From Shigella phage SFP21B: a DNA stretch of 39,356 nt. Position 1 is the stretch's first letter. Each line of letters begins with the position of its first letter. The translations under genes were made by a program, and so were the position numbers. Location: the sequence record OQ031073; one strand, given 5' to 3'. Below the pieces are notes generated by a model that worked only from the letters and a program-made list of their open reading frames with translations, searched no databases and was not told the origin of the DNA. This document shows, in pieces, positions 14,701 through 31,443 of this stretch.

Positions 14701-14748
14701 TTAGACTCAAGGTCATTACCACTATATGTAGTGGCCTTTATGATTAAC
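14701..14748 (+). other. RNase III-type processing stem-loop (R18.5-like), copy 1 of a conserved motif
   Basis: TTAGACTCAAGGTC...GGCCTTTATGATTAAC; same motif recurs at 24351 and 31403. Confidence 0.45.
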
Positions 14749-14801
14749 ACACACTACGAGCGGTGACGCTACGTGGATTCTGAGAAATGAGGAGGGCAAC
14801 T

Positions 14802-15251
14802 ATGCTCGAACTTTTACGTAAAGCAATCCCGTGGCTGGTTGCAGGACTCCTGTTCTGCTCTGGCTATTGGGTAGCTGATAATAAGTGGGAGGCGAAGGTA
14901 AACAATGAGTACATCACGAAACTTGAGGCACGAGAGAATCAACGGGCTGCTGTCCAAGGTGAAATCGACAAAGTGTCAGCAGAGTGGCAAGACAAGATGT
15001 CCGCGCTGGAAGGCTCTACTGATAGGATTATTGCTGACCTTAACCGCGATAACAAGCGGCTGCGCATCCGAGTCAAACCCACCAGTGGAACAGTCCAGAC
15101 TGACGGTCGATGCGTCATTGATGGTTACGCCGAACTTGACGAACGAGATGCTAAGCGTCTTATCGCCATCGGACTGAAAGGTGACGAATGGATTAAGGCC
15201 CTCCAGAAGACCGTGAGAGCCATGCAGCAAGAGAAGGAGGTGAAACCTTGA
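14802..15251 (+). CDS. 18.5: Rz-like i-spanin (gp18.5)
   Basis: start chosen at second ATG (SD GAGGAGGG 5 nt upstream); [19 protein letters not shown]-terminal TM, T7 gp18.5-like ([26 protein letters not shown]); ORF track start 14787 is an in-frame alternative. Confidence 0.85.
14905..15177 (+). CDS. 18.7: Rz1-like o-spanin (gp18.7) embedded in the +1 frame of Rz
   Basis: lipoprotein signal [16 protein letters not shown]|C (lipobox) and proline-rich mature part; T7 18.7-like N-terminus MST..; functional start may be internal. Confidence 0.7.
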   Translation: MSTSRNLRHERINGLLSKVKSTKCQQSGKTRCPRWKALLIGLLLTLTAITSGCASESNPPVEQSRLTVDASLMVTPNLTNEMLSVLSPSD

Positions 15252-17011
15252 GTCAAGACTTAGCAGCGCGTCAGGCGCTTATGACTGCCCGTATGAAGGC
15301 AGACTTCGTGTTCTTCCTGTTCGTTCTGTGGAAAGCTCTGTCACTTCCCGTTCCGACTCGCTGTCAGATTGACATGGCGAAGAAGCTATCGGCTGGGGAC
15401 AACAGGCGCTTCATCTTGCAGGCGTTCCGTGGTATCGGGAAGTCCTTCATTACGTGTGCCTTCGTGGTCTGGAAGCTATGGAATAACCCGGACTTGAAGT
15501 TCATGATTGTGTCGGCCTCAAAGGAACGAGCCGATGCGAACTCAATCTTCATCAAGCGTATCATCGACCTCATGCCTCAGCTCCAAGAGTTGAAGCCTAA
15601 GCAGGGGCAGCGAGACGCAGTAATCAGCTTTGACGTAGGACCTGCCAAGCCTGACCACTCTCCTTCGGTTAAGTCCGTTGGTATCACTGGTCAGTTAACT
15701 GGTAGCCGTGCTGACATCCTGATTGCCGATGACGTAGAGGTCCCCGGTAACTCCGCTACTCAGGCAGCACGGGACCGACTGTCAGAGCTGGTGAAAGAGT
15801 TCGACGCAATCCTGAAGCCGGGTGGTACGGTTATCTATCTGGGTACTCCTCAGACCGAGATGACCTTGTATCGACAGCTTGAAGGTCGTGGTTACTCAAC
15901 TACCATCTGGCCTGCCCGCTACCCACGTGATGAGAAGGACTGGAAGTCTTACGGCGACCGTCTGGCCCCGATGCTTCAGGCCGAGCTTGAGTCCGACCCT
16001 GAGGGCTACTACTGGCTCCCTACCGATGAGGTTCGATTCGACGATGAGGACTTGAGGGAACGTGAGCTGTCTTACGGTAAGGCTGGCTTCGCTCTCCAGT
16101 TCATGCTCAACCCGAACCTTGGTGATGCCGAGAAATACCCGCTGAAGCTGCGTGACCTTATCGTAGCGGACTTGGACCCTGAGTCAAGCCCTATGGTCTA
16201 CCAGTGGCTCCCGAACCTTCAGAACAAGCGTGAGGACGTTCCTAACGTGGGACTCATGGGTGATTCCTACCACACGTATCAGACTGTAGGTTCTGCCTTC
16301 AGTTCGTACACCCAGAAGATTCTGGTCATTGACCCCAGTGGTCGTGGTAAGGATGAGACCGGGTATGCGGTACTGTATCAGCTCAACGGCTACATCTTCG
16401 TGATGGAAGCTGGTGGTATGCGCGGTGGCTATGAGGACTCTACGCTGGAGTCTCTGGCGAAGATTGGTCGCAAGTGGAAGATTAACGAGTACGTCATTGA
16501 GGGTAACTTCGGTGATGGTATGTATCTCGAACTCTTCAAGCCTGTGGCGGCTCGTATTCACCCGGCAGCAGTAACTGAGGTCAAGAGCAAGGGTCAGAAG
16601 GAACTACGCATCTGTGACGTTCTGGAGCCTATCATGGGGTCCCACAGACTCATCGTGAACTCCTCGACCATTGTGTCTGACTACCAGACTGCCGCTGACA
16701 AGGATGGCGTCCGTAACCCTATCTACTCCCTGTTCTACCAGATGACCCGTATCAGCCGTGAACGTGGGGCCTTGGCACACGATGACCGACTTGATGCTCT
16801 GGCTATCGGTGTACAGTTCTTCGTAGAGTCTATGGCTAAGGATGCCGTTAAGGGACAGCGTGAAGTCACCGAGGAGTGGCTGGAGGAACAGATGGAAGAC
16901 CCACGGAAAGGCTTTAAGTCCATCGAGACGGACTACTGGGACAATGGGGTCCGGGTCCAGTTCAATACAGATGATGACTTGGGCTTAGGGTCCTACGTAC
17001 AGTTCCACTAG
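15248..17011 (+). CDS. 19: terminase large subunit (gp19)
   Basis: 587 aa; T7 gp19-like (CQIDMAKKL, Walker [67 protein letters not shown]); apparent TTG start with SD AAGGAGGTGA 7 nt upstream, overlapping Rz stop. Confidence 0.95.
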
Positions 17012-17103
17012 CAGTTTGCATAAAGTACCGCATTAGTTGCATGAATACGCACTATGTAAGTCGGTACATAACGCTCGTAACTCTATGTATTCCTTAGGAA
17101 AAT

Positions 17104-29095: not shown

Positions 29096-30799
29096 ATGTC
29101 ATATGAAGACCAAGAGCAGGACGATAGCGTCTTCCTCTACCACACCGAGTGTCCAGACTGCGGGTCTTCGGATGCCAATGGTGTTTACTCAGACGGACAC
29201 ATGTACTGCTTTGCGTGTGACCCGTCAGTCGCTTGGAAGAAAGGCGACATGGAATTGACAGAAGGTTACACGCCTTCAGGAGGTAAGAAGCAAGTGAGCA
29301 ACCTGTTAACGTGGGGCGAGAACTCAGGACGCTACGTCCCACTCCCGGCTCGTGGACTATCGGCTGACATCTGCAAGAAGTACAGCTACTGGGTAGGCAT
29401 GATGCAGGGTAAGATGGTCCAGATTGCGGACTACTACGACAGGTCAGGGACCAAGGTAGGACAGAAGGTCCGGGACGCAGACAAGAACTTCACAGCTATC
29501 GGTAGCGTCAAGAATGACCTACTGTTTGGCTCTCAACTCTGGTCTGGTGGCAAGAAGATTGTCATTACCGAAGGTGAGATTGACTGCCTGTCAGTCGCTC
29601 AGGTACAGGAAGGTAAGTACCCTGTGGTCTCTCTTCCGTTGGGCGCAAAGTCTGCGAAGAAGACACTGGCAGCGAACCTTGAGTACCTCGACCAGTTCGA
29701 AGAGATTATCCTGATGTTCGACATGGACGAGCCGGGACGTGAGGCTGTAGAGCAAGGTGCTCCGGTCCTCCCTGCTGGTAAAGTCAAGGTCGCATTCATC
29801 AATGGGTACAAGGATGCCAACGCTGCGCTTCAGGCCAAGGACTTCAGGGCGATTCAGGATGCAATCTGGAACGCTAAACCTTTCGTCCCGGCTGGGGTGG
29901 TGAGCGCCAAGTCTCTGAAGGACAGGACCCGCGAGGCAATGCTGAAGTCTGAGACTGAAGGTCTCCTCTTCTCATCCTGCACAACACTTAACGCGATGAC
30001 CCTCGGTGCGCGAGCTGGTGAGCTTATCATGGTGACTTCAGGGTCAGGCATGGGTAAGTCCACGTTCGTCCGCCAGCTCCTCTTAGAGTGGGGCAGACAG
30101 GGTAAGCGTGTTGGTATGGCGATGCTGGAGGAAGCAGTAGAAGAGACGGTTCAGGACCTCATCGGTCTGGACAATAACGTCCGTCTCCGTCAGTCCAAAG
30201 AACTGAAAGAAGCAATCCTGAAGGATGGACGATTCGACGAATGGTATGACAAACTGTTCAATGACGATAAGTTCCACCTGTACGATTCATTCGCTGAGTC
30301 CGAGGAAGACACCTTGTTCGCCAAGCTGGGCTATATGGTGGACGGTCTGGACTGCGATGTTATACTGCTGGACCACATCTCAATCGTGGTGTCTGGCATG
30401 GAAGATAACTCAGATGAGCGTAAGACCATCGACCGCATCATGACCCGTCTCAAGAAGTTTGCGAAGACGAAAGGCGTGGTTGTCGTGGTCATCTGCCACC
30501 TGAAGAACCCGGAGAAAGGTAAGTCTCATGAAGAAGGTCGCCCTGTCAGTATCACTGATTTACGTGGGTCTGGTGCTCTGCGCCAACTATCTGACACTAT
30601 CATTGCACTGGAGCGTAATCAGCAAGGTGATACTCCTAACGTTGTTCAGCTTCGTTTGCTTAAGTGTCGCTTTACTGGCGATACGGGCATTGCTGGACAT
30701 CTTGAATACAACAAGCTCACAGGCTGGCTTGAACCGACTGTCCAAACTGGTGGAAGCGGAGAAGAGGATAGCAGCTCGTGGGAAAACAACGACTTCTGA
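29096..30799 (+). CDS. 4: DNA primase/helicase (gp4A); likely internal start for helicase-only form near 29249
   Basis: 567 aa; Cys4 zinc ribbon (CPDCGSSD...CFAC), T7 gp4-like ([15 protein letters not shown], Walker [39 protein letters not shown]); in-frame ATG at 29249 with SD GAAAGG. Confidence 0.97.
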
Positions 30800-30875
30800 C
30801 CATGAGTCCTTTGACCAGTGGCAGGACCTTAACGAACGAGAGGAGCAATACTATGCGAAACTTAATCAACGGTAA
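30528..30875 (+). CDS. hypothetical overlapping ORF (gene 4.1/4.2 position)
   Basis: 115 aa open frame in an alternative frame across the gene 4 3' end; the part overlapping gene 4 is compositionally off-frame-like. Confidence 0.25.
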
Positions 30876-31386
30876 GACCCTGACCGAAGCTCAGCTTGAG
30901 CTTGGCCCGAAGGAGGGACTTGAAGTCTTCACCTCTCGCTGCACGGGCCGAACTCTTGGTAGGGCGCTGCTGTTCATCTCCACGGCTATGGTCCAAGGGT
31001 CGATTGACATTGGGCCGCTGCGTGGCAACTTGGGAGACCAAGAGGTTGACAGCACGAAGTACCAAATCACTCAGCGTCTCGACCAGATGGGCCTCGTAGG
31101 GTTCAAGCTGGAAGGTGACGTTCTGTCCTATTATCCATTCGAGGAGCACCAAGATGTTAAAGAGGTTGTGCGAGAAGTTAAAGTCCAAGTATCACCTTTC
31201 TCTGGCGAAGTGGTATCACCACGAAGCTACAGTGTTAAGCAACATCCTGAAGGACCAGCGGTTCCAGTCAGCGGCATGGAACAAATCTACTCAGAAGTGC
31301 GCGTATCATCTGGCGCGAGTCCTGTAGTTGAACCAATGGAGACTATCGAGCCTCTGGTTCCAGACATGACGCCATCCAAGCAATAA
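30853..31386 (+). CDS. hypothetical protein (gene 4.3-4.7 region); extent uncertain
   Basis: ATG with SD GAGGAG; N-terminal ~100 codons have gene-like codon usage; a second frame (31154..31327, SD GAGGAG) looks more gene-like downstream. Confidence 0.4.
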   Translation: MRNLINGKTLTEAQLELGPKEGLEVFTSRCTGRTLGRALLFISTAMVQGSIDIGPLRGNLGDQEVDSTKYQITQRLDQMGLVGFKLEGDVLSYYPFEEHQDVKEVVREVKVQVSPFSGEVVSPRSYSVKQHPEGPAVPVSGMEQIYSEVRVSSGASPVVEPMETIEPLVPDMTPSKQ

Positions 31387-31404
31387 GCCCTCACTGTAGG
31401 ATAG
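31382..31404 (+). promoter_or_regulatory. phage RNAP promoter variant upstream of DNA polymerase, AATAAGCCCTCACTGTAGGATAG
   Basis: core CCTCACTGTAGG (G at -3). Confidence 0.7.
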
Positions 31405-31443
31405 ACTCAAGGTCGTTAATACTAGCGGCCTTTATGATTAGAC
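31403..31443 (+). other. RNase III-type processing stem-loop (R4.7-like), copy 3
   Basis: AGACTCAAGGTCGTTAATACTAGCGGCCTTTATGATTAGAC. Confidence 0.45.

Follow-up and report, generated by a model that had tools for sequence, protein, structure and literature searches.

Predicted T7-type RNase III sites and a repeated element in Shigella phage SFP21B

Bacteriophage T7 has ten RNase III sites, often paired with promoters, and because T7 grows in hosts without RNase III, these sites tune expression and are not essential (PMC6938266). R1.1, the standard experimentally cleaved RNase III substrate (PMC6121014; PMC4858673), is a 60-nt RNA from between T7 genes 1.0 and 1.1 whose internal loop is asymmetric (4 nt/5 nt) and in which a single primary site is cleaved, both in vivo and in vitro (PMC6121014); its cleavage products are 47 nt and 13 nt (PMC4858673). 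Internal loops limit RNase III to one phosphodiester, and the remaining 3' hairpin protects the upstream RNA, while binding and cleavage are governed by the proximal box (PMC1540722). Here we analyzed an element that occurs three times in the 39,356-nt sequence of Shigella phage SFP21B (record OQ031073; this whole stretch is referred to as the window). We conclude with high confidence that the three copies are the orthologues of T7 and T3 sites R18.5, R1.1, and R4.7 and serve as RNase III processing signals in the polycistronic mRNAs of the phage. The corresponding hairpins are as follows.

14695..14755, + strand: predicted RNase III processing hairpin, R18.5 orthologue (gene 18, small terminase/gene 18.5, Rz); covariance model, 59.3 bits, E = 1.4e-11
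24342..24399, + strand: predicted RNase III processing hairpin, R1.1 position, after the promoter at 24334-24346; covariance model, 61.4 bits, E = 4.4e-12
31395..31449, + strand: predicted RNase III processing hairpin, R4.7 position, 8 nt before DNA polymerase gene 5; covariance model, 56.3 bits, E = 7.5e-11

The conserved element within these hairpins spans 14703-14746, 24350-24390, and 31403-31440, and all three copies are intergenic and lie on the transcribed strand. Each copy consists of two blocks separated by 14 to 22 nt that vary between copies in both sequence and length. The 12-nt 5' block, AGACTCAAGGTC, matches exactly on the + strand at 14703, 24350, and 31403, and at one mismatch or fewer it has 8 matches, compared to 0.30 expected by shuffling. 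The 14-nt 3' block, GGCCTTYATGATTA, i.e., GGCCTT(T/C)ATGATTA, matches exactly at 14733, 24377, and 31427, with no further match elsewhere in the window even at two mismatches or fewer. The counts of both blocks far exceed the shuffle expectation. At the RNA level, the blocks (ACUCAAGGUC on the 5' side and GGCCUUUAUGAUU on the 3' side) span an internal loop and the helix adjacent to it; they are present in all three copies and differ only at one T/C (U/C) position in the 3' block of copy 2. The first-pass annotation of this DNA had described three near-identical elements of ~45 nt. The three repeats do lie where it placed them, but near-identity was an overstatement, since what the copies share is the two blocks and their identity over the whole element is 69 to 74%.

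The neighbors that had been named for the three copies (the small terminase gene, a promoter at 24328, and gene 5) agree with the gene and promoter positions. Copy 1 follows the small terminase gene (14434-14697) and precedes the Rz gene. Copy 2 begins 4 nt past the promoter core CCCTCACTATAGG (24334-24346) and is followed by a 59-amino-acid (59-aa) open reading frame (ORF) and the ligase gene. Copy 3 begins 3 nt past the promoter core at 31388-31400, and its element ends 17 nt upstream of the DNA polymerase gene, which starts at 31457.

In the T3 record (AJ318471), the label "RNase III recognition site" is given to ten stem-loops, R0.3 to R18.5. Of these, R18.5 separates genes 18 and 18.5, R1.1 (6003-6053) overlaps the end of promoter phi1.1 (5984-6006) in the same way that promoter and stem-loop overlap at 24342 in the window, and R4.7 (12970-13018) lies just upstream of gene 5 (13043). 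The T3 sites carry ACTCAAGGTC...GGCCTTTATGATTA, read as AAACTCAAGGTC-stem-loop-stem-GGCCTTTATGATTA. The proposed correspondence to T7 RNase III sites is therefore well founded, as the annotated T3 sites R18.5, R1.1, and R4.7 have the same positions, the same blocks, and the same fold. Synteny with T3 and T7 extends to all three copies: a site between genes 18 and 18.5, a promoter followed by a site in the gene 1-1.3 interval, and a site followed by gene 5. The T7 records NC_001604 and V01146, in the copy examined, contain no RNase III features; T7 site positions were taken from motif searches and from coordinates attributed to Dunn and Studier (1983), with T3 AJ318471 as the annotated reference. 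The motif search placed T7 matches at 1437-1472, 5857-5891, 13863-13896, and 36826 onwards, which match the coordinates of R0.5, R1.1, R4.7, and R18.5.

The gene order of the window (the capsid gene first, then the late genes, the early region, and the DNA metabolism genes) identifies it as a complete, circularly permuted T7-like genome. A 2-kb sample is 99.5% identical to Shigella phage SFP20, relatives include Cronobacter phages GW1 and Dev2, Citrobacter phage SH4, and coliphage K1F, and the phage belongs to the genus Kayfunavirus, family Autographiviridae. In K1F, the counterpart of the first site (36446-36503) follows gene 18, that of the second (5566-5623) lies between the genes for RNA polymerase and ligase, and that of the third (12853-12908) precedes the polymerase gene at 12921. 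At matching positions the window and K1F are 90% (R18.5), 97% (R1.1), and 79% (R4.7) identical, compared to 69 to 74% for paralogues within the window, which indicates that the three copies are old, position specific, and separately maintained.

Shared fold, covariance model, and covariation

Folding each copy, which the first-pass annotation had proposed as a check, gave a common two-stem shape in all three, with z scores of -3.2 to -4.5. The minimum free energies were -19.6 kcal/mol (z = -3.9) for 14695..14755, -20.2 kcal/mol (z = -4.5) for 24342..24399, and -16.7 kcal/mol (z = -3.2) for 31395..31449. In each of these single-sequence folds, a 4-nt/5-nt internal loop separates the lower stem from an upper stem of ~10 bp.

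We aligned 17 sites (3 from the window, 7 from T3, and 7 from T7) as the basis of a consensus structure and a covariance model; the T3 and T7 members were gathered without the pattern used to search IMG/VR (see below). The three window copies align column for column with more than ten T3 and T7 sites. In the consensus, stems of 9 bp (lower) and 10 bp (upper) flank a 4-nt/5-nt internal loop, with compensatory changes in 13 of the 19 pairs. Invariant throughout the 17 sites are the AGG and CCU of the loop-adjacent helix and one U on each side of the loop. The window copies score 61.4, 59.3, and 56.3 bits (E, ~1e-11), scores that are not independent of the model, as all three copies are among the 17 sequences from which it was built. 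The K1F orthologues, which are independent of model building, score 58 to 61 bits.

Scanning IMG/VR with the motif returned at least 120 stretches, nearly all of them on contigs of ~40 kb. When the covariance model was applied to these listed loci together with T7, T3, and the window, 187 sites were obtained. Among the matches listed, there were 107 distinct sites, in which 93.1% of cells were paired, compared to 26 to 49% when the partners were slid. These sites contained 331 double-change cells, compared to 108 in shuffles; changes on both sides occurred in 14 of the 19 pairs, all lower-stem pairs covaried, and the observed covariation score was reached by 0 of 500 shuffles. The covarying columns of the variable stem were left free in the search pattern, so the covariation is not inflated by the way in which the loci were collected. 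These pair-preserving changes at variable stem positions indicate selection on RNA structure. Sequence, fold, covariation, synteny, and family membership are direct observations for the three elements, each copy having the shape, the blocks, the compensatory pairs, the syntenic intergenic location, and the model score.

Proposed RNase III processing and alternative explanations

In the mechanism that we propose, each transcribed element would fold into a hairpin of ~20 bp with a lower stem, an asymmetric loop (5' ACUC, 3' UAUGA), and an upper stem starting from AAGGUC/GGCCUU, and host RNase III would bind this two-turn helix. Because the scissile region sits in the internal loop, only the 3' side would be cut, between the U and the G of CCUU(U/C)AU↓GAUUA. 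By alignment, the predicted cuts fall at U14741/G14742, U24385/G24386, and U31435/G31436. When split at the coordinates attributed to Dunn and Studier (1983), T7 sites R0.3, R0.5, R1.1, R4.7, and R18.5 all break as (U/C)AU↓G. The upstream mRNA would keep a 3' hairpin protecting it against 3'-5' exonucleases, and the 5' end of the downstream mRNA would be GAUUA..., with the next ribosome-binding site some tens of nucleotides further on.

The conservation of the element had been said to exceed what a simple hairpin needs, and this is borne out: the conserved letters are those of the internal loop and the cut-adjacent helix and not of the whole stem. Such conservation is a known property of T7-type RNase III sites and can be explained by the loop together with the conserved AAGG/CCUU helix beside the cut, which on our alignment would correspond to the proximal box. 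A phage kinase would probably boost RNase III turnover, as in T7, where the gp0.7 kinase phosphorylates RNase III and raises its turnover, with a ~5-fold-higher kcat (PMC4858673). The window encodes such a gene.

19455..20222, + strand: gp0.7-like serine/threonine protein kinase gene; phrog_15752, E = 1.4e-110, a family described as positive regulator of RNaseIII

Several points weigh against reading the elements as RNase III signals. For this phage we infer both cleavage itself and the exact bond from the T7 homologues, and the placement of the cuts uses T7 coordinates attributed to Dunn and Studier (1983). The comparison loci were collected by means of the motif itself, so block conservation among them is inflated. 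An Rfam scan of the whole window gave no family at the gathering score; Rfam appears to be without a model for T7-type RNase III sites, and no curated model was applicable. The public records of SFP20 and K1F annotate no RNA processing sites, and in the literature on K1F-like phages we found no genome paper describing RNase III sites. The naming of orthologues is also affected, as the ORF that follows copy 2 has no convincing similarity to T3 gp1.1.

24421-24600: 59-aa ORF 3' of the site at the R1.1 position; phrog_4383, function unknown

Having no recognizable homology to T3 gene 1.1, this ORF was rejected as gene 1.1, and since no recognizable homologue of that gene follows copy 2, "R1.1" is a positional name only.

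Stable intergenic hairpins could instead make RNA polymerase, of the host or of the phage, terminate or pause, and a simple terminator scan does flag 14719-14734 with the tail CCTTTATGAT. However, only one of the three copies was flagged, and weakly, in a scan that returned fewer hits in total (8) than in shuffled sequence (12.6), and the stems are followed by UAUGAUUA and not by a U run. Two copies lie 3 to 4 nt past a promoter and immediately precede essential genes, a place where a terminator would be self-defeating. An early terminator that does have a proper U tail lies elsewhere, at 26125-26152, after the ligase gene; in T3, the sites homologous to the three copies carry an RNase III annotation, and the terminators TE and Tphi are annotated at other places. 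On the basis of the tails, the scan, the location, and the separate terminator, we rejected this explanation for the three elements and consider it extremely unlikely. The identical 12-nt and 14-nt blocks, present in three copies at module boundaries, might also be taken for a repeat that spread recently, either as a mobile or duplicated DNA element or as a recombination linker between modules, with the RNA fold incidental; conserved intergenic blocks could conceivably serve homologous recombination between related phages. A recent spread is contradicted by positional counterparts in K1F that are more alike (79 to 97%) than copies within the genome (69 to 74%) and by the pair-preserving stem changes across the 107 sites. 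In addition, every copy is on the transcribed strand, the same positions are filled in T7, T3, and K1F, and in the close relatives compared so far no copy sits at a variable, non-syntenic place or in the opposite orientation. We therefore rejected recent duplication or a mobile repeat, since orthologues are more alike than paralogues and the stems covary, and regard it as very improbable.

There is also a slim chance that the main role of the elements is something other than cleavage, such as RNA stabilization, translational control, or a DNA hairpin involved in replication or targeted by host defense, with RNase III cutting secondary or absent. Cleavage is dispensable in T7, which grows without RNase III (PMC6938266), and the Lamassu system DdmABC responds to the cloned DNA of a T7 RNase III site, presumably through a single-strand DNA hairpin (PMC11707656); the loop letters are moreover more constrained than the need for cleavage in vitro that the title of Chelladurai et al. 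(1991) reports. Set against this, RNase III cuts the homologous sites of T7 both in vivo and in vitro (PMC4858673, PMC6121014), and the conserved helix adjacent to the cut would be the proximal box, which controls both binding and cleavage by RNase III (PMC1540722). To the phage, triggering Lamassu is a cost and not a function, and stabilization by a 3' hairpin itself follows from a single cut. RNase III processing remains our preferred explanation.

A second function in addition to RNase III recognition would be another way to account for the near-invariant loop and adjacent helix at more than 100 phage sites (among the matches listed), although we give this little credence. It could take the form of a long-range pairing that masks the 5' arm of the hairpin and tunes cleavage, or of a DNA-level signal. 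In its favor, the reverse complement of the 5' block (ACCUUGAGU; the 9-mer ACCTTGAGT on the + strand) is unexpectedly frequent, with four copies within or at the edge of coding sequence.

15245-15253, + strand: ACCTTGAGT, 18.5/19 gene junction
25469-25477, + strand: ACCTTGAGT, ligase gene
29676-29684, + strand: ACCTTGAGT, helicase gene
38929-38937, + strand: ACCTTGAGT, scaffold gene

Counting both strands, the 9-mer has 9 matches (5 sense and 4 antisense), compared to 0.5 expected. K1F also has four copies of ACCTTGAGT, three of which (in the ligase, helicase, and scaffold genes) are orthologous to those in the window, and the copy in the ligase gene is intact in relatives in which its flanks have diverged to ~77% identity. 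T3 and T7 relatives have no such 9-mer at these places. The antisense 9-mer could be explained by protein-coding constraint (D/N-L-E-S), or it could be a nucleotide-level signal.

Further hairpins, promoter leaders, and comparison with known systems

The list of sites in the first-pass annotation was correct for the three elements and incomplete for the genome, as it lacked three early-region sites and hairpins resembling R3.8, R6.5, and R13. The early-region hairpins have the two-stem shape with a 4/5 loop and carry variant blocks.

18510..18595, + strand: early RNase III-type hairpin with a long upper stem (ACUACAGGG...CCCUGACUGAU); model, 27.3 bits, E = 7e-4; fold, -30.3 kcal/mol, z = -3.65
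19412..19466, + strand: early RNase III-type hairpin (ACUACAGGUC...GGCCUGACUGAUU); model, 49.5 bits, E = 3e-9; fold, -22.2 kcal/mol
20216..20270, + strand: early RNase III-type hairpin (GACGAGAGGCC...GGUCUCAAAGAUU); model, 28.0 bits, E = 4.5e-4; fold, -20.9 kcal/mol, z = -4.6

The hairpin at 18510..18595 lies 16 nt before the S-adenosylmethionine (SAM) hydrolase ORF (gene 0.3-like), which is the R0.3 position, and its K1F counterpart is at 707-769. Those at 19412..19466 and 20216..20270 lie just upstream and just downstream, respectively, of the gp0.7-like kinase gene; both have K1F counterparts, that of the latter at 1766-1822. The remaining three hairpins are candidates identified by resemblance.

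29041..29064, + strand: candidate R3.8-type 5' hairpin; fold, -14.2 kcal/mol, z = -3.4; resemblance only, outside the covariance model
4323..4378, + strand: candidate R13-type hairpin, arms GGCCUAUAG/CUAUAGGCC around the promoter at 4349, before gene 13; fold, -18.8 kcal/mol, z = -3.2
35395..35475, + strand: candidate R6.5-type hairpin, arms AGUCUUAUC/GAUAAGACU and GUCCA/UGGAC around the promoter at 35440

The annotated R3.8 of T3 and T7 11180-11212 have the same shape as 29041..29064, and T7 also has the same downstream sequence; T7 11180-11212 is the R3.8 place. R13 of T3 is annotated as a stem-loop enclosing promoter phi13, to which the likeness of 4323..4378 is by resemblance only, and the inverted repeat at 4323-4378 is without the AAGG/CCUU blocks, unlike the conserved element. 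Similarly, T3 R6.5 is annotated as a stem-loop enclosing phi6.5. The region 35395-35520 folds at -29.9 kcal/mol (z = -2.3), and 35395..35475 has neither the AAGG/CCUU blocks nor a match to the covariance model, making it the weakest of the three resemblance-based candidates. Because the inverted repeats at 4323-4378 and 35395-35475 enclose promoters, these hairpins are predicted to be able to form only in read-through transcripts. Two further sequences were considered as sites and rejected: AGACTGAAGGTC at 29952, which has no covariance-model match and lies inside the helicase gene, and AGACTTAAGGTC at 35566, which has no covariance-model match and lies in a region that folds with a z score of +0.26.

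Two other signals were noted. Inside the R18.5 hairpin, at 14716-14744, is a sigma-70-like promoter match (TTACCA, 17 nt, TATGAT; 9/12), and in T7 the minor "E. coli promoter E" is annotated at 36836, within the model-matched R18.5 site at 36816-36870. Separately, a 12-bp GC-rich hairpin with a T-rich tail occupies 26125-26162, at the position of the T7/T3 early terminator TE.

Related segments had also been described after the gene 1 promoter and the phi10-like promoter. The sequence is indeed present, the 9-mer ACTCAAGGT occurring at 20835 and 39264, but neither place has the 3' block or a model match, and neither segment belongs to the element. In the gene 1 leader (20835-20880) there is no GGCCUU...AUGAUU within 2 mismatches and no covariance-model match at E <= 10 with filters off, and the leader folds no better than shuffles (z = +0.47). 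We rejected it as a member on the missing 3' block, the model, and the fold. It carries GGACTCAAGGTC at the very start of the transcript, and this 12-mer is conserved at this place across Kayfunavirus, with sequence past GGUC that varies without consistent pairing. The leader may be what is left of an R1-type site, or else a transcript-start sequence that has been conserved. The phi10 leader (39264-39272) likewise has no covariance-model match at E <= 10 and was rejected for this reason and for the absent 3' block. At this place K1F has ACTCAATGT. The phi10 leader of the window resembles the R3.8 hairpins of T7 and T3 and also the T7 phi10 leader.

The promoter core CCCTCACTATAGG occurs in 12 copies on the + strand, 11 with no mismatch in CCCTCACTRTAGG and 1 with two. 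One phage-type promoter with this core (20822-20834) lies directly upstream of the phage RNA polymerase gene (region 20815-20908). Its predicted transcript starts with GGACUCAAGGUC; throughout Kayfunavirus, both the 12-mer and this placement of the promoter are conserved. Directly upstream of the RNA polymerase gene, neither T7 nor T3 has an annotated phage promoter. The position of the promoter at 20822-20834 implies that the phage polymerase would transcribe its own gene; the PE3-1 record calls the sequence homologous to this promoter region a host RNA polymerase promoter. A further sequence, GACTTTAAG(T) or ACTTTAAG, recurs in mRNA leaders just 5' of start codons, twice before gene 1 (20871-20880 and 20897-20906) and also in the leaders after the promoters at 4349, 26184, and 35440. 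It resembles the UUAACUUUA translational enhancer of the T7 gene 10 leader.

Taken together, three canonical, three early, and three candidate sites make up essentially the T7 set in this genome, unannotated in the SFP20 and K1F records. Elements of this kind, with their consensus, structure, and positions, are textbook features of the T7 group and already known; the sole new point is that the sites are unannotated in the Kayfunavirus records examined. The result for the three elements leaves current understanding unchallenged, and its main value is annotation, since these sites define which mature mRNAs arise and, probably, how stable and how well translated they are. Synthetic biology uses the same hairpins as insulator parts (PMC6993053). 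As DNA palindromes, such sites can trigger Lamassu DdmABC (PMC11707656), which could bear on the host range of therapeutic Kayfunavirus phages.

Compared with known systems, the window is closest to K1F and SFP20, whose counterparts are unannotated in their records; the K1F sites are 79 to 97% identical with the same flanking genes and no substantive difference, and K1F too has three weaker early-region sites. T3, of the genus Teetrevirus, has annotated sites with the same blocks at the three matching positions, but identity is 59 to 71%, and its R4.7 has no promoter in front. The T7 sites share with the window the blocks (A)CUCAAGGUC and GGCCUU(U/C)AUGAUU, the arrangement of lower stem, 4/5-nt loop, and upper stem, and the same intergenic positions, often similarly paired with a phage promoter. 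They differ in the sequences of the distal stem and loop, with 61 to 69% identity overall; in addition, the phi4.7 promoter of T7 follows R4.7, whereas in the window the promoter precedes the site, and T7 R6.5 has the conserved blocks that are absent from the promoter-enclosing hairpin at the R6.5 position of the window. More distantly, cellular and lambda substrates, such as rRNA precursor stems, are like the window elements in using the same enzyme, about two helix turns, and permissive proximal and distal boxes (PMC1540722). In contrast, fully paired substrates of this kind are cut on both strands, while the T7-type internal loop directs cleavage to one strand and leaves a 3' hairpin (PMC1540722).

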